DNA from: Christensenella sp. UBA3217
GTDB taxonomy: Bacteria > Bacillota > Clostridia > Christensenellales > CAG-1252
NCBI GenBank assembly: GCA_002363545.1
Contig: DEWF01000001.1
Location: forward strand, 240,272-304,271
Reading direction: 5' to 3'
DNA length: 64,000 bases
In this document: in pieces, positions 5,274-33,770 of the stretch
Layout: each line of letters opens with the position of its first letter
Position numbering within the stretch: position 1 is the stretch's first letter
Notes under the pieces: generated by a model
What the model was told of the DNA's origin: nothing
Database searches by the model: none
What the model saw: only the letters and a program-made list of their open reading frames with translations
Position numbers and translations under genes: made by a program

Positions 5274-5676
5274 GTTGAAAGATCGTATCACAAATAGCAA
5301 ATTGATTAAAAAAATACGTTCCGCTAAAAACGCAGAAATCGTTGTAGCTTTGATTTTTGCTTTGATCGCGGGGGTCACTTATTTTGTAATAGCAGCCAAA
5401 ACTTCCTCAAATAAACCTACCGCAAGTATGGCACAAAATGGAAAGATGACGGAGGAAGAAGAACGACTTGCCGAGCTGATCTCCGATATCTCGGGCGTAG
5501 GGAAAACAAGGGTACTTATCACAACGGATAACGGCAATGAGGTGATTGGTGTTGTGGTGGTTGCCGAGGGCGCGAAAGATATGAATAATCGGGTAAAAAT
5601 GATCCGTTGCGTGGAAAAGGCCACCGGTGCTACGGTGGACAAAATAGAAATATTTGAAATGGCAAATGGAGGGTAA
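5257..5676 (+). CDS. spoIIIAG: Stage III sporulation protein AG (short form)
   Basis: EERLAELISDISGVGKTRV and VIGVVVVAEGA motifs. Confidence 0.85.
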   Translation: MRFVRELKDRITNSKLIKKIRSAKNAEIVVALIFALIAGVTYFVIAAKTSSNKPTASMAQNGKMTEEEERLAELISDISGVGKTRVLITTDNGNEVIGVVVVAEGAKDMNNRVKMIRCVEKATGATVDKIEIFEMANGG

Positions 5677-5680
5677 AAAA

Positions 5681-6175
5681 ATGTCAAACAAAAAGAAAAT
5701 CATAATTATTTGTTCCATGGTGGTATTGCTTGTTGCCGCAGCTTATCTAAACGTGTTGATCTCGCAAAAAAACACGGGGAGTTTGGCTGTTGGAAAGATT
5801 ACGGATGAAGCATCAACGACGGTTTCCTTCTTTACGAGTTATCGCAGTGCAAGGGATGCTTCCAGACAGGAGACCTTTATGTATTACGATTCTATCATCA
5901 ATTCCGAAACCGCTTCAGCCGCCGCTGTCACCTCGGCAGAGGGTAAGAGAGAAGAATTGGTTGGATTCAGTGAAACCGAACTCGTTTTGGAAGGGCTTAT
6001 CAAAGCAAAAGGGTTTGAAGACGCCGTTGTGACTATTTCCACAAGCAACGTAAACGCCATCGTGAAAAAGGAAGGGGAGATAGATTCAAACGATGCCGCC
6101 CAGATCCTTAATATCATCACTACCGAAACGGGGGTAGCCGCAAGTAAGGTGATCATCACGCCGTACTCTGTCTAA
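5681..6175 (+). CDS. spoIIIAH: Stage III sporulation protein AH
   Basis: N-terminal TM, FFTSYRSARD...R, LIKAKGFEDAVV. Confidence 0.85.
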   Translation: MSNKKKIIIICSMVVLLVAAAYLNVLISQKNTGSLAVGKITDEASTTVSFFTSYRSARDASRQETFMYYDSIINSETASAAAVTSAEGKREELVGFSETELVLEGLIKAKGFEDAVVTISTSNVNAIVKKEGEIDSNDAAQILNIITTETGVAASKVIITPYSV

Positions 6176-9061: not shown

Positions 9062-9279
9062 CGTTTGAAGAAATACTGAACGAGTTGACCAAAATATCCG
9101 ATTCCTTGGAAAACGGGAATCTATCTTTGGAAGAGGGCATTGAGATCTACAACAAAGGGTTGGAGCTTTCCCAAAAGGCCATTTCCATTTTGAAGGAAAG
9201 CAAAGGGAAGATCACTCTTCTGAATGATGAGCTTGGCAAGCTTGCCGATATGGCTTTTGAGGTGGAAACCAATGATTGA
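9058..9279 (+). CDS. xseB: Exodeoxyribonuclease VII small subunit
   Basis: MTFEE...LE.G.LSLEEGIEIY.KG; follows xseA. Confidence 0.92.
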   Translation: MTFEEILNELTKISDSLENGNLSLEEGIEIYNKGLELSQKAISILKESKGKITLLNDELGKLADMAFEVETND

Positions 9280-10213
9280 AGACGTTCTTAAACGTTTTGC
9301 GGAAAAGTTTGATAAAGATATAGAGCGTGAGATGAACGCTCTGCGAGGTGGAACGCTGGTAAACGCTATGCGTTATTCCGTGCTAGGTGGCGGGAAACGT
9401 TTGCGTCCCTTTATGGTGCTGCTTGCCGCAGAAATGGGCGGGCTTACTTATGACGACGTGTTCCCCCTTATGTTTGGTATTGAACTTGTGCATAGTTATT
9501 CTCTTGTGCATGATGATTTGCCTTGTATGGATGACGATGATTACAGAAGGGGGCGCAAATCCACTCACGCTGTGTATGGGGAAGCTATGGGTGTATTGGC
9601 AGGTGACGCACTTTTGAATTATGCGTATGAATACATGCTTGCCAATGCGGTTAAAGCCAAAAACGTTGGCGGCTATATCACAGCGATCAGTTGCATTATG
9701 GTGCGTGCAGGATATATGGGTATGCTTGGCGGTCAAAGTTACGATATTGATGAAGAGATCAAAAAGAACTTCAAACGCGATGACTTTATAAACATGTATT
9801 CCGGAAAGACGGGCGCGCTTTTCCAGGCGGCGCTTGGTGCGGGCGCTTTTGCCGCCGGATTATCCGAACAAGATATCCTTTCACTTTTGAAATGCGGCAA
9901 TTATCTGGGAATCGCTTTCCAACTCAAAGACGACCTTGATGATCTTACACAAGACCAAAAAGGGGTGGATCAAAAGGAGAAAAAGCCTTGCTTGACTATG
10001 ATGTCCACCTTTACAGAGCAGTCGGCAAGAGAGTATATCGAATTGAATCGTGACGTGGCAATAGACGCAGTTTCCGAGATAAAGGGTTCGGAAAATATTG
10101 TATCGTTTATCAAAGCACTTTTATCTTTCCCTGCGACGGAACAAAAAAAGGGTGAGAAAGATACCGAAGAAAAAACGGAAACTGAGCAAGGGGAACAAGA
10201 TCCCAAGCAATAA
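9272..10213 (+). CDS. ispA: Farnesyl/geranyl diphosphate synthase
   Basis: GGKRLRP, HDDLPCMDDDDYRRG (FARM), FQLKDD; acidic C-terminal tail. Confidence 0.93.
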   Translation: MIEDVLKRFAEKFDKDIEREMNALRGGTLVNAMRYSVLGGGKRLRPFMVLLAAEMGGLTYDDVFPLMFGIELVHSYSLVHDDLPCMDDDDYRRGRKSTHAVYGEAMGVLAGDALLNYAYEYMLANAVKAKNVGGYITAISCIMVRAGYMGMLGGQSYDIDEEIKKNFKRDDFINMYSGKTGALFQAALGAGAFAAGLSEQDILSLLKCGNYLGIAFQLKDDLDDLTQDQKGVDQKEKKPCLTMMSTFTEQSAREYIELNRDVAIDAVSEIKGSENIVSFIKALLSFPATEQKKGEKDTEEKTETEQGEQDPKQ

Positions 10214-10267: not shown

Positions 10268-10296
10268 TTGTAATTTATAAAAAAGTATGTTAATAT
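10268..10296 (+). promoter_or_regulatory. SigA promoter of the OLE-oapA operon
   Basis: TTGTAA-N17-TAATAT with an extended TG; the predicted TSS (~10303) matches the start of the RNA closing stem. Confidence 0.6.
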
Positions 10297-10303
10297 AATT
10301 TTA

Positions 10304-10868
10304 CGGTGGTGCAGTATTCTAGTCAGAACACACACATACGAGGACGGGGGTAAAAGACCGTCGTAGGGCACATCGATGAAGTTTCTTGTGTTGGCTCGTT
10401 TTGCCCAAATTCGGGTCGATGCTGGGAGTTAAGAATCGTGGGCGTTTCGTAACGGCATACGAAAGCCGACCCACCTTTCGTGGAGACCTACAATGGTGGT
10501 CGGGAACCGGGCACTGTGTGGGATTAAACCTGCAATGCGGTAATAAGCTGTGTGCAGAGTAGCCTGCCTTGAGTGAAATAGGCGGATTGGGAACCACACC
10601 GTATATGTCGGCAGACATATACCGGTGATTGCCCATGAAACTTAAATTGCAAAAGAGGATAAGTCGTGTGTGGTCTGTTAAGGAAATCTTCTAGACTGTA
10701 TTCGGTAATGTAAGGATTATAGTGCGACCTTAGTGGTGATTCAGTTGCGTGAGGGGTGACCCCCGCCTTGCGGATCAAAAGGAAACTGCGCGTTCGGCGA
10801 CGGCGCGTTTCGCATGGGGAAATCCTACTGGACCTATGGCGCAAGGTTTACTTGCATTACTACCACCG
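10304..10868 (+). ncRNA. ole: OLE RNA (ornate, large, extremophilic)
   Basis: ~565-nt structured intergenic region in the canonical ispA-OLE-oapA-dxs-tlyA context. The 5' CGGTGGT(GC)AGTA pairs with the 3' TACTACCACCG. Internal hairpins include GTATATGTC-GGCA-GACATATAC (10601-10622). Confidence 0.88.
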
Positions 10869-10888
10869 ATTTTTAAAGGAGTCAGCTC

Positions 10889-11533
10889 TTGAAAGAAGAC
10901 GCGGAAAATAAAGTTTCTTTACAAGAAGAGAGCTCAACGAAAGAGCGACAAAAAAGAAAGGGTGAAAAAAAGAATCTTTGGCCCTTAAAAGTTACGATCA
11001 TCACTCTTGTGTTGTCGGCATTTTTTAGTTTTTCTACAGAAATTCTCACCAATAAAAGTAATTTGATCGTGGCATTTTTGATCTGCGTCCTTTTGATTTT
11101 GATCAGTATCATCTTTGATGGGATTGGCGTTGCCGTAACCAATTGCGATATTAAACCTCTTACGTCCATGGCGTCAAGACGAGTGCCGGGCAGTAAGCGT
11201 GCGATACGTTTGGTGCAAAACTCGGAAAAAGTAAGTAGTATTTGTTGTGACGTGATCGGTGATATATGCGGTGTTATATCGGGCGCTTGTTCGGCTGCTA
11301 TCGTTATTCAGATCATTGCGTTATCCGGTTCTACCCATCAACTCATCATATCCATTGCCATGAGCGCAACGATCGCGGCATTGACCGTTGGCGGAAAGGC
11401 GATCGGAAAGACCATTGCCATTCGCAATTCAAAAGAGCTGGTTATGCTTACCGCTCGCATCCTCGGACTGTTTAGTCGGGAAGGCAGAAAGGAGAAAAAA
11501 CATGCTTCTGAAAAGAAAAAATCTTCCCGCTGA
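10889..11533 (+). CDS. oapA: OLE-associated membrane protein A
   Basis: Multi-TM 214 aa protein with SMASRRVPG..RAIRL and CCDVIGDICG (DxxxD motif); immediately follows OLE; AAGGAG RBS, TTG start. Confidence 0.85.
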   Translation: MKEDAENKVSLQEESSTKERQKRKGEKKNLWPLKVTIITLVLSAFFSFSTEILTNKSNLIVAFLICVLLILISIIFDGIGVAVTNCDIKPLTSMASRRVPGSKRAIRLVQNSEKVSSICCDVIGDICGVISGACSAAIVIQIIALSGSTHQLIISIAMSATIAALTVGGKAIGKTIAIRNSKELVMLTARILGLFSREGRKEKKHASEKKKSSR

Positions 11534-13211
11534 TATCAAAACGCTTACTTTGGACGAACTGAGCGTTCTTTCCAATGAGGTCAGGCAAAGGATCATAGAA
11601 GTAACTCTTCAAAACGGAGGGCATATCGGGGCCTCTCTCGGGGCGGTGGAGCTTATCGTATCACTTTTGCACGTTTTTGATGCGGATAACGATAAAATAG
11701 TGTTTGACGTTGGCCATCAAGCCTATGCTTATAAAATACTTACCGGCAGGAATGATGCCTTTGATTCTTTGCGTACCTTTGGGGGGATCAGCGGTTTCCC
11801 AAAACCTTCCGAAAGCAAGTACGATCATTTTGTTGGCGGACACGCAGGAAATGCTGTTTCCGCGGCTTGCGGTTATGCAATGGCTCGCAAACTATCGGGG
11901 AAAGATTATCAAGTGATATCCGTACTTGGCGATGGGGTGCTTGTGAACGGAGAAACCGCAGAAGGCCTTAATCTTGCATCTTCTTCCGGTAAACAGATCA
12001 TTGTAATAAACGATAACACTTTTTCCATATCTGCCGGCGTGGGCAGTATCCCGGACTATTTGAAAGACTTGCGTGAAAAACGTTACGATGGGAGGGTTTT
12101 AACGGGAGAAAAGAGTCCTTTTGCCATGTACGCTTTGGATTATTTAGGGCCAATAGACGGGCACGATGTAAAAACCCTCGTTAAGGCCTTTGAAATTGCA
12201 AAAGAGAATAAAACCTCTATCGTTTTACATATTGTCACCAGCAAAGGAAAAGGGTTTGCAATAGCGGAACAAAACCCCTTAAAATTGCACGGTATCTCCC
12301 CAAAAGGTGAAGTTTCAAAAGAGGGCTTTGGTAAAGTGTTTGGGGATACCCTCATAAAATTGCGCGAAAAAGATGATAAAGTTGTTGCCGTTGCGGCAGC
12401 AATGGCTATCGGGACCGGTTTAACGAGTTTTATCAATCGATTCCCGAACAGTTTTATTGACGTGGGTATTGCGGAAAGTACGGCCGTAAGCGTTGCCGCG
12501 GCACTCGCTCGTGCAGGATATAAGCCTTACGTTGCCATTTATTCCACCTTTTTACAACGTGCCTATGATCAGCTTTTATATGACGTTGCGCTTGACAACT
12601 TAAACGTTACGTTCCTGCTTGATCGCTCCGGTATCGTTGGGGAAGATGGAGAATCCCATCAAGGTATTTATGATCTTTCTTTGTTGTCATCCGTGCCCAA
12701 GTGTAAAGTTGCTTCTCCCGCTACCTATCAAGAACTGGAACTATTGCTTGATTGGTCGCAAAAAACGGATGGCGTGAAGGTGATACGTTATCCTAAGGGC
12801 GGTACCGAATTGTCTAATGCTTGTGACGGGGCATTCCCTTTCTGGCAGATGCTTTCTTATGGAAAAGACGGTTATTTGATCGCACATGGCGCGGCAATGT
12901 TGCAGGTGGCAAAGGATGCGATCGGCATGTTGAAAGAAAAAGGGAGGGAAATAGGGCTCGTAAACGCGCGCTTCATTTCACCGATAGACTGTGCTTGTTT
13001 GGATCAAATTAAACATTTACCTTTGTTTACGGCTGAGGACGTGGTGTATGCGGGATCTCTTTCCGAACATCTTTCCGCCATGGGGTATTCCATTCATAAA
13101 GCATTCACGCTTCCCAATACGTACGTGACTTTCGGTAAGCCTGCCGAATTGCGTTCTCTTTATCGGATCGATGCCGCATCTATTGCAGAGGAGATCCTCA
13201 ATGAGGCTTGA
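11502..13211 (+). CDS. dxs: 1-deoxy-D-xylulose-5-phosphate synthase
   Basis: GGHIGASLG, FDVGHQAY, GPIDGHD, DVGIAE, DRSGIVGEDGESHQG; start moved to ATG 11502 (AGGAG RBS). Confidence 0.95.
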   Translation: MLLKRKNLPADIKTLTLDELSVLSNEVRQRIIEVTLQNGGHIGASLGAVELIVSLLHVFDADNDKIVFDVGHQAYAYKILTGRNDAFDSLRTFGGISGFPKPSESKYDHFVGGHAGNAVSAACGYAMARKLSGKDYQVISVLGDGVLVNGETAEGLNLASSSGKQIIVINDNTFSISAGVGSIPDYLKDLREKRYDGRVLTGEKSPFAMYALDYLGPIDGHDVKTLVKAFEIAKENKTSIVLHIVTSKGKGFAIAEQNPLKLHGISPKGEVSKEGFGKVFGDTLIKLREKDDKVVAVAAAMAIGTGLTSFINRFPNSFIDVGIAESTAVSVAAALARAGYKPYVAIYSTFLQRAYDQLLYDVALDNLNVTFLLDRSGIVGEDGESHQGIYDLSLLSSVPKCKVASPATYQELELLLDWSQKTDGVKVIRYPKGGTELSNACDGAFPFWQMLSYGKDGYLIAHGAAMLQVAKDAIGMLKEKGREIGLVNARFISPIDCACLDQIKHLPLFTAEDVVYAGSLSEHLSAMGYSIHKAFTLPNTYVTFGKPAELRSLYRIDAASIAEEILNEA

Positions 13212-17075: not shown

Positions 17076-18089
17076 ATGAAGTGTAGGATCATACAGGTGC
17101 TTCTTTTTACTTTTCTAATAGTATCATTTACCTTTTATCCAACCACAATCACCTATGCCGAAGGTGAAAAGGTTTATCTCGGTGGAATCCCCATCGGGAT
17201 CGGGCTTGCCGAAAAAGGGTTGATCGTTACGGGCATGGTTGATGTGATCACCGATGAGGGGAGCTTTTGTCCCGCTCGCGGCAGCGAAATTTTGACCGAT
17301 GACGTGATTGTTAAAGTAAATGGAACAGAAGTTAGCGGCGTAAGCGAATTTGCAAGCGAACTACAAAAATCGGGAAATCATGTTGATCTTACTTTAAAAA
17401 GAGGGGATCGTGAGTATAACGTCTCACTTTCTCCCGTCACCGATGCTTTGACAGGGCTCAAAAAGGTCGGATTGGTTTTGAAAAACGGGATAAACGGCAT
17501 TGGCACCCTAACTTTTATTACAAAAGAGGATAAATTCGGTGCTTTGGGACATGGGATTGTTGATGTGGATACCGGAAAACCCTTTATTACCGATGAAGGA
17601 TCTATATATTCCTGTTTGATAAACGGATACCGAAGACCTGAGGCGGGAAAAGCGGGAGAGTTATCGGGTAAATTCATGAATCGCGATGAACCTATCGGAA
17701 AGATAACAAAATGCAATGAATTTGGTGTATACGGAACTGTTTTACCTGTGGTAAAAGATGATTTGAAAGAAATAACGCTCGGGAATAAGAGTGATATTCG
17801 AACAGGTCCGGCCCTAATATATTCAACTATTTCCGGGAATGTTCCGAAAGCATACAAAATCGATATAATCAAATTGTCGAATCAACAGAAACCTACAGAA
17901 AAAAGCATGCTGATCCGCGTGACCGATAAGGAGCTTTTAGCGGAAACAGGTGGCATTTTACAAGGAATGAGTGGTAGTCCGATCGTGCAAAACGGTAAAC
18001 TGATAGGGGCGGTGACTCACGTTCTCGTAAACGACAGCACCTTAGGATATGGTTTATATATCGATTGGATGATCGAAAACGCCGCATAA
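17076..18089 (+). CDS. spoIVB: SpoIVB peptidase (S55, PDZ)
   Basis: GIGTLTF, GALGHGI, TGGILQGMSGSPIVQNGKLIGAVTHV. Confidence 0.95.
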   Translation: MKCRIIQVLLFTFLIVSFTFYPTTITYAEGEKVYLGGIPIGIGLAEKGLIVTGMVDVITDEGSFCPARGSEILTDDVIVKVNGTEVSGVSEFASELQKSGNHVDLTLKRGDREYNVSLSPVTDALTGLKKVGLVLKNGINGIGTLTFITKEDKFGALGHGIVDVDTGKPFITDEGSIYSCLINGYRRPEAGKAGELSGKFMNRDEPIGKITKCNEFGVYGTVLPVVKDDLKEITLGNKSDIRTGPALIYSTISGNVPKAYKIDIIKLSNQQKPTEKSMLIRVTDKELLAETGGILQGMSGSPIVQNGKLIGAVTHVLVNDSTLGYGLYIDWMIENAA

Positions 18090-18134: not shown

Positions 18135-18749
18135 ATGAAGTATGGCTTGAGATCGCGTTTTTACTATTTGAAACTTGATTTGAAAGAAAGTATAAAACAT
18201 AATAAAAGACGATTGATTGCGCTTTATGGGTGGCTGTTGGCGGGAATGGCTATTGGTATTTATATCGGAGTTAAGATCGGTGAAAAAAACGCGCCATTCG
18301 GAATGTTTTCGGAACTGTTTCATCTGAAATATGAACCTTTTTCTCACGTTTGGCCTGATTTTTTACGCTTTTTCCTCTTTGCTTTCTTGTGTGCTCTATG
18401 TTATTTTTTGCCATTTCCAACCATATACCCGGCACTTGCCGCGTTGTTCTTCGGAAAATACTTCGGTCAGCTCGCCTGCGTTGTTTTCTTAACAGATTCT
18501 TTGATCGCTTCTTTACTTTCGTGTGTTCTTTTATACATACCTCTGTTGATCGTAGGCGGTTGGCTTTTATTTAGGATATCCTTAAAATGCGGTGAATTTA
18601 GGCTTTGCAATGGAACGGACCCTTGTAAAAACAGCTTAAAACGTGCCGGAGCAACGTTGCTATTAAGCCTAATTATGTACCTTTTGCTCCTTTTTTTACT
18701 TTACGTTATGCTTTGCGGTCTTATTTATTTGATCGTCATAGCACTTTAA
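18135..18749 (+). CDS. Polytopic membrane protein, probably SpoIIM-like
   Basis: About 5 hydrophobic segments, SigE-like promoter, sporulation neighbourhood upstream of dacF; the family call is inferred. Confidence 0.5.
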   Translation: MKYGLRSRFYYLKLDLKESIKHNKRRLIALYGWLLAGMAIGIYIGVKIGEKNAPFGMFSELFHLKYEPFSHVWPDFLRFFLFAFLCALCYFLPFPTIYPALAALFFGKYFGQLACVVFLTDSLIASLLSCVLLYIPLLIVGGWLLFRISLKCGEFRLCNGTDPCKNSLKRAGATLLLSLIMYLLLLFLLYVMLCGLIYLIVIAL

Positions 18750-33252: not shown

Positions 33253-33328
33253 CGGGGTGTAGCGCAGATGGTAGCGCACGTGGTTTGGGACCATGGGGCC
33301 GGGAGTTCAAGTCTCTTCACCCCGACCA
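33253..33328 (+). tRNA. tRNA-Pro(TGG)
   Basis: Cloverleaf, anticodon TGG, encoded CCA. Confidence 0.95.
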
Positions 33329-33339
33329 GTATGTATCTT

Positions 33340-33416
33340 GGGCCTTTAGCTCAGTTGGTTAGAGCGGTCGGCTCATAACCGATTGGTCCGCGGTTCGAGT
33401 CCGTGAAGGCCCACCA
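33340..33416 (+). tRNA. tRNA-Ile2(CAT), lysidine type
   Basis: Anticodon CAT; GGGCCTT acceptor stem and body resemble Firmicute Ile2 rather than Met. Confidence 0.8.
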
Positions 33417-33438
33417 AGAATAGTTTTGTTAATAATGC

Positions 33439-33515
33439 GGTCCGGTAGTTCAGTTGGTTAGAACGCCAGCCTGTCACGCTGGAGGTCATGGGTTCGAGCC
33501 CCATTCGGATCGCCA
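33439..33515 (+). tRNA. tRNA-Asp(GTC)
   Basis: Cloverleaf, anticodon GTC, CCA. Confidence 0.95.
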
Positions 33516-33522
33516 ATTTTAT

Positions 33523-33598
33523 GCCTTGGTAGCTCAGTAGGTAGAGCAGGGGACTGAAAATCCCCGTGTCGGTGGTTCAATTCCGCCCCAAGGCACCA
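33523..33598 (+). tRNA. tRNA-Phe(GAA)
   Basis: Cloverleaf, anticodon GAA, CCA. Confidence 0.95.
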
Positions 33599-33603
33599 GC
33601 CCT

Positions 33604-33679
33604 GCTGGTGTAGCTCAATTGGCAGAGCAGCTGATTTGTAATCAGCAGGTTGTTGGTTCGATTCCGATCACCAGCTCCA
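33604..33679 (+). tRNA. tRNA-Thr(TGT)
   Basis: Cloverleaf, anticodon TGT, CCA. Confidence 0.95.
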
Positions 33680-33686
33680 TAATTTC

Positions 33687-33770
<84 letters not shown>

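Follow-up and report, generated by a model that had tools for sequence, protein, structure and literature searches.

We are highly confident that the gap downstream of ispA described here holds an OLE RNA gene that is full-length and functional, that oapA, its obligate partner gene, comes next within a conserved ispA-ole-oapA-dxs operon, and that the host is an uncultured rumen member of the Clostridia. OLE is a known class of large, folded RNA in bacteria and acts together with the protein OapA at the cell membrane. An Rfam cmscan of the whole window (the entire stretch of 64,000 nucleotides of Christensenella sp. UBA3217 DNA that was analysed, numbered from its first letter) placed OLE (RF01071) at 10290-10882 on the plus strand, with 446.5 bits and an E-value of 7.7e-128, against a gathering threshold of 50 bits. 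The match covers model positions 1-616 without truncation and is the single strong non-tRNA match in the window, and OLE is single-copy in the genome (1.42 Mb, 12 contigs, 91.65% complete). The initial annotation had proposed an OLE gene followed by oapA and had said that the lack of a significant covariance-model match would speak against it; a score of this size bears the proposal out.

The ole-oapA operon and its host

The gap that had been noted between ispA (polyprenyl synthase, 9224-10213) and oapA, which starts at 10889, is present and measures 675 bp. Counted from P1 to P1, the OLE RNA within it occupies 10304-10868 on the plus strand (565 nt). Its expression signals and the genes that follow it are these:

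10268-10296, plus strand: putative sigma-A promoter of ole (-35 TTGTAA at 10268-10273, 17-nt spacer, TG-extended -10 TGtTAATAT at 10288-10296)
10876-10881, plus strand: Shine-Dalgarno sequence AAGGAG of oapA, 8 nt past the end of P1, an arrangement conserved in the genus
10889-11533, plus strand: oapA, 214 aa with a TTG start; Pfam CNNM match of 39.8 bits against a cut-off of 28.4
11502-13211, plus strand: dxs, NCBIfam dxs equivalog match of 489 bits; public gene calls agree on the coordinates

The promoter motif is present as first claimed, and a comparison found the block kept in 12 relatives from the genus and family, every genus member examined among them, the sequence farther upstream being unalignable. 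Its hexamers match the sigma-70 consensus at 8 of 12 positions, a moderate agreement that accounts for the failure of a consensus promoter scan of the gap to report any plus-strand promoter. Its conservation throughout the genus, in the form TTGTAA-17-TGnTAATAT, is the only reason for retaining it as a putative promoter. From its position the transcript is predicted to start at about 10303-10305, at the first base of P1.

A sequence scan found no terminator-like site on either side of OLE, whether toward ispA or toward oapA. The start codon of oapA lies 20 nt beyond P1, and dxs overlaps the end of oapA by 32 nt, so that these genes belong to the same operon. The uninterrupted run from P1 into oapA, a ribosome-binding site so close to P1 and the overlapping dxs would also suit an element working chiefly in cis, a long structured leader that controls the translation or stability of the oapA-dxs message, and not a trans-acting particle. 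We regard such a leader as very improbable, since the OLE of H. halodurans is released from the operon transcript by processing, is abundant, binds OapA, OapB and OapC, and is localised to the membrane (PMC12265935, PMC11332333), and since some 565 nt with roughly 180 covarying pairs far exceeds the needs of known leaders. The trans-acting RNA is the reading pursued below.

The gene order around the locus is spoIIIAH-asp23-nusB-folD-xseA-xseB-ispA-OLE-oapA-dxs-tlyA-nadK-argR-recN-spoIVB, in agreement with the published OLE association (PMC12265935). The flanking genes at the two ends encode a SpoIIIAH-like protein (5654-6175) and SpoIVB (17076-18089), and from their presence the 1.4-Mb genome seems to keep sporulation genes. 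In this it is in line with the correlation reported between OLE and sporulation genes. Past spoIVB, the window also contains a 204-aa ORF (18135-18749) with no Pfam match at E <= 0.001 and, farther on, six clustered tRNA genes on the plus strand (33253-33768).

The nearest relatives are metagenome-assembled genomes (MAGs) recovered from the rumen of yak, buffalo and goat, and they carry the labels Clostridia or Christensenella sp.; an identical OapA occurs on 20 contigs of metagenome assemblies of rumen type, including runs SRR8736xx, which we take to be a sheep-rumen study. The host is an uncultured, small-genome rumen anaerobe of the Clostridia. The earlier suggestion of a non-extremophilic anaerobe fits these closest relatives, which are rumen and gut Clostridia MAGs, and OLE is already known to be common in anaerobes of the rumen and gut type.

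Fold, covariation and length of the RNA

The closing stem first seen as joining 10304 to 10868 is real and corresponds to helix P1, in which CGGUGGU (10304-10310) forms seven Watson-Crick pairs with ACCACCG (10862-10868). Among 60 related OLE sequences P1 is 95% paired and covarying, with five of its seven pairs changing on both sides. P1 belongs to the published OLE model and carries no annotation in the Rfam structure line; the long-range helices P1, P2 and P3/P3.1 were added manually to the Rfam structure. P2 pairs 10312-10315 with 10695-10698 and 10319-10322 with 10691-10694, and the third long-range helix is the following:

10324-10335 (5' strand) with 10666-10677, plus strand: helix P3/P3.1, 11 bp and one A.G, covarying in the 60 relatives

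P3/P3.1 has been proposed to cross the membrane beside OapA (PMC12265935), and it may do the same here.

To test covariation, 60 distinct OLE sequences taken from related genomes were aligned with MAFFT, without fitting the alignment to the structure. The 27 pairs of P1-P3 were 90.9% paired, against 31-48% when the partners were slid by 1-3 columns, and 18 of them change on both sides. For the whole structure of 178 pairs the figures were 88.1% of cells paired against about 40% in the slid controls, with compensatory (two-sided) change in 136 pairs. As judged from these alignments, the OLE helices, including the long-range helices P1-P3, are maintained by compensatory change in the relatives. 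In the window RNA itself both partners are present for 151 of the 159 modelled base pairs, of which 135 form standard pairs, and 225 of the 249 well-conserved (upper-case) consensus positions are identical. Differences among species of the genus are mostly compensatory.

The same comparisons bear on the reading frames in the gap. Mechanical ORFs do overlap the RNA (105 and 106 aa on the minus strand, 51-58 aa on the plus strand), and one could suppose that the gap encodes small proteins in these overlapping frames of 50-106 aa, and no RNA. We give this next to no credence: public gene callers report no gene within the gap, the products of the two long antisense ORFs were not found in a collection of 15 billion proteins, and substitutions among relatives track base-pairing, not codon structure. 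That the RNA was "hidden under spurious ORFs", as the initial annotation put it, does not describe the public gene calls, which leave the gap empty.

Between the same P1 landmarks the RNA has 23 nt fewer than the 588 consensus positions, all of the difference being deletions. The suggested covariance-model check for shortened stems located them: 8 nt are missing from the terminal loop of P7, another 8 nt from the replacement of a 4-bp mini-hairpin (model positions 424-435) by AUUC, and the remainder from seven deletions of one or two positions each in P8, P9, P13 and P14.1. The mini-hairpin region is equally short or shorter in many relatives. When core length was taken as the distances between twelve conserved anchors, the window RNA measured 544 nt, against a median of 548.5 nt and a range of 523-567 nt in relatives. 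The 565 nt from P1 to P1 first given for this copy is therefore correct; its description as shorter than typical is not, the core being close to the relatives' median. The C. acetobutylicum OLE with a solved structure has 577 nt (PMC12286853).

Fernando & Breaker (2024) count matches of at least 390 bits as full-length OLE, and describe reduced variants in which P7-P9 are shortened or missing and the OapB site is absent (PMC11332333). Here P7 (10487-10522) and P8 (10530-10557) are present. We class the RNA as full-length because its score exceeds 390 bits, P7-P9 are of near-normal length and the OapB site is kept, with the reservation that the 446.5 bits come from the Rfam model and not from Fernando & Breaker's own model. 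Assignment to reduced variant 1 or 2 was rejected on bit score, element lengths and the retained docking sites. A 64-nt insertion seen in P5 of the OLE of another genus member (G005, loci L015 and L113) proved to be a run of N and was set aside as an artefact of the public assembly.

Could this copy nevertheless be a decaying, non-functional relic in a reduced 1.4-Mb genome? The small genome, the 23 deleted nucleotides, an altered dimer-bridge loop (see below) and the existence of relatives that lost OLE entirely yet kept oapA all point that way. Against it, identity holds at 90% of the conserved positions, and of 151 modelled pairs 135 form; most differences within the genus are compensatory, and purifying selection is already strongly evidenced; neither the promoter nor oapA nor any of the protein docking sites is damaged; and the deletions are confined to terminal loops and to a small hairpin that also varies in relatives. 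Decay is accordingly a most unlikely account, and we proceed on the basis of a functional gene.

Partner proteins, docking sites and the P9 loop

The gene after OLE carries the CDVIGD form of the DxxxD motif that had been read in it, at C120-D125, with the two aspartates at D121 and D125 (codons 11249-11263). Alignment with 20-21 homologues shows W31, D77, G80, I118-D125 (ICCDVIGD), C127, S131, G132, K170 and K174 to be invariant. Four hydrophobic segments are visible in the homologue alignment, and the N-terminus bears a Lys/Glu-rich extension of 30 residues that varies among relatives. The start codon in relatives is TTG or GTG. With one genome taken per species, 75 homologous oapA loci were recovered, and OLE lies directly upstream of oapA in nearly all of those with sufficient flank. 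OLE and OapA almost always occur together according to the literature; among 40 related genomes OLE was found in 25 and OapA in 29.

Three related genomes have oapA without detectable OLE (locus L119 in G035, L120 in G033 and L121 in G039), and each of the three carries an MpfA-type protein. At L119 (G035:C3:26900-28700) the order is xseB-ispA-oapA with a gap of 91 nt between ispA and oapA, and the OapA there has 217 aa, is 49% identical to that of the window and bears the motif VCADVIGD. G035 looks like a clean loss of the OLE gene with oapA retained.

The proposed genome search for oapB and oapC turned up an OapB-like and an OapC-like gene, both away from the locus. The OapB-like gene was located by its position between map and infA and then confirmed against the H. 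halodurans OapB structure. It encodes 90 aa (G000:C6:29556-29825, minus strand), and its top solved-structure match is that protein (7K9B, E 1e-4, residues 7-60). Equivalents of the RNA-contacting residues G19, R20, N54 and H57 are retained, and R35 and N56 are each replaced by K. Sequence searches of two other kinds gave no OapB, a KOW-motif protein also named YbzG. A Pfam KOW (PF00467) profile search of the 40 genomes returned two matches per genome, presumably L24 and NusG, and none that was OapB, which indicates that the Pfam KOW model is blind to OapB; a screen of all small ORFs for the N.NH motif found nothing. A 77-aa KOW match in one genome (G020) was dropped, as it adjoins an apparent phage-type gene. 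An OapB-like protein occurs in 35 of the 40 related genomes, with OLE present or absent, and finding it in this genome is therefore no proof that it works with OLE here. Occurrence of OapB independent of OLE is the pattern known from the literature as well.

The OapC-like gene (C6:1254-1511, minus strand) lies directly upstream of rpsL, and no other L7Ae-family gene occurs in the genome. Its top solved-structure match is B. subtilis YbxF (E 1.7e-4, a low score), the conserved glycine that in this family touches k-turns is kept in LVGLKQ, and its best NCBIfam match, PRK13602, falls under the cut-off of that model. It is a candidate for the YbxF-type (OapC) L7Ae paralogue as opposed to the YlxQ type. 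Directly upstream of this gene and rpsL, at the place expected for rpoC, we observed a 1410-aa ORF with many repeats of leucine-rich type (locus L101, G000:C6:1744-5976, minus strand; TSVTIPDSVTSIG...).

The CorC_HlyC domain, a marker of MpfA-type Mg2+ exporters, was absent from the window genome and from all 12 of the 12 other genus genomes searched. An anticorrelation of OLE and MpfA has been published (PMC11332333); the window genome fits it, and a sister genus (g4) reproduces it at fine scale. The alternation there is strict: three members of that genus (G015, G021 and G023) combine OLE with OapA and lack MpfA, and three others (G018, G020 and G022) carry MpfA but lack both OLE and OapA. 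Across the same sister genus, identity of the OapB-like protein to that of the window is 37-40% in the members lacking OLE versus 52-59% in those that have it.

The functional landmarks of the RNA are listed below under names that follow PMC7936274, PMC9723947, PMC12286853 and PMC12265935.

10343-10362, plus strand: P4 hairpin with A-rich loop (AAAA at 10352-10355), from the cmscan alignment
10374-10381, plus strand: kink-turn strand J4a/5, CGAUGAAG, matching the consensus
10402-10407, plus strand: L5.1, UGCCCA, complementary to L6.1 (GGCA at 10454-10457)
10480-10488, plus strand: kink-turn strand J6/7, GUGGAGACC, matching the consensus
10610-10613, plus strand: apical tetranucleotide of P9, GGCA against the consensus GGCC, with A in place of C at consensus position 336
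10747-10766, plus strand: P13 hairpin with GUGA (GNRA) tetraloop at 10756-10759 and bulged A10752, from the cmscan alignment
10797-10800, plus strand: GCGA tetraloop of P14.1, from the cmscan alignment

In cryo-EM structures the A-rich L4 loop forms dimer bridge B1 (PMC12286853, PMC12265935), and L5.1 and L6.1 make an intermolecular kissing pair in the OLE dimer (PMC12265935). In the 60 relatives the G, C and C of L5.1 and the GGCAU of L6.1 are invariant, and the bases of the kink-turn strands are mostly invariant or nearly so. The kink-turn formed by J4a/5 and J6/7 is the docking site of OapC (PMC9723947, PMC12286853); that of OapB, with its known requirements, is the bulged GNRA hairpin of P13, and the GCGA loop of P14.1 is a second, weaker OapB site (PMC7936274). 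Within the genus the P13 loop alternates between GUGA, GUAA, GAGA and GCGA, and therefore remains GNRA.

The P9 loop is different. In cryo-EM structures it is palindromic and forms dimer bridge B3 by symmetric kissing, and it covaries between palindromes (PMC12286853, PMC12265935). All members of the window's family (f1, four genera) have a non-palindromic GGCA or GGCG instead, and the loop is self-complementary in 47 of 47 relatives outside that family (GGCC, CGCG, GCGC, GUAC or GACGUC). Besides the window, the loci with GGCA or GGCG are L007-L013, L103-L106, L108-L111 and L113. The GGC of the loop is invariant, so the loop is still constrained; not being palindromic, it may weaken one of the four published dimer contacts. 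We propose, tentatively and with some doubt, that the family replaced the self-complementary P9 loop by GGCA or GGCG while keeping the other OLE features and the three partner proteins. The loop sequences would still allow two G-C pairs with a G.A or G.G mismatch on either side, and the bridge could persist in that form; alternatively, the P9 loop of this family may have acquired another partner. If the replacement holds structurally, the family would offer a natural test of whether the P9-P9 bridge (B3) and the arch are needed for OLE dimers.

Proposed role and relation to known OLE types

What can be said of function here is carried over by analogy from distant model species, namely from work on Halalkalibacterium halodurans and from the Clostridium OLE structures. 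On that model, transcription of ole would begin at its own promoter and perhaps, in addition, run through from ispA; OLE would form the 5' portion of a polycistronic transcript, and processing would then release its 3' end. The RNA would fold into domain 1 (P3-P9) and domain 2 (P1, P2 and P10-P15) and form dimers by way of its A-rich L4 loop and the kissing loops L5.1 and L6.1. OapA dimers beside P3 would hold it at the membrane, and OLE would bind two further proteins, OapC through its kink-turn and OapB through the GNRA hairpin of P13. Such a particle might help the cell to withstand stresses, among them cold, an excess of Mg2+, short-chain alcohols and poor carbon sources, and in this genome it probably covers the role in Mg2+ homeostasis that is played elsewhere by MpfA.

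The locus is a known RNA class in a textbook setting, with no feature that changes current knowledge. OLE, its partner oapA, the gene neighbourhood and the occurrence in gut and rumen anaerobes have all been published, and so has an OLE census across all GTDB genomes (PMC11332333). The locus therefore matters little beyond its correct annotation and is a clean negative for novelty. Three of the observations could feed work on the function of the OLE class: the non-palindromic P9 loop, the alternation of OLE/OapA with MpfA, and the retention of oapA after loss of OLE. It may also be recorded that, in contrast to the reduced TANB77 and RF39 lineages, this 1.4-Mb rumen genome retains the full OLE-OapA set along with genes resembling those for OapB and OapC.

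Among proteins, the closest systems are the OapA family of WP_010898928.1 and the CNNM/MpfA/CorB-CorC Mg2+ transporters, with both of which the window protein shares a CNNM-type transmembrane domain. Like the WP_010898928.1 family it has four hydrophobic segments and a conserved DxxxD and is encoded directly after ole. It has no CBS or CorC_HlyC domains, unlike the MpfA types and as expected for OapA.

Among RNAs, the window OLE resembles the full-length OLE of H. halodurans, C. acetobutylicum and C. botulinum (PMC11332333, PMC12286853, PMC12265935) in matching the full model, in having P1-P15 with covariation, and in carrying an A-rich L4, L5.1/L6.1 kissing loops, the kink-turn strands, a bulged P13 with a GNRA loop and the GCGA loop of P14.1. 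It also sits between ispA and oapA-dxs in a Bacillota anaerobe, as those RNAs do. It differs from them in being 23 nt below the consensus, in having GGCA and not GGCC in the P9 loop, and in its host, a small-genome rumen bacterium and not an extremophile. With the reduced OLE variants it shares an uncultured gut or rumen host with a small genome (about 1.4-1.55 Mb). Unlike those variants, which score 310-390 and 235-310 bits, it reaches 446 bits and keeps near-normal P7, P8 and P9 together with the OapB site; and whereas the clades with reduced variants mostly lack the OapB and OapC genes, the window genome keeps OapB-like and OapC-like genes.
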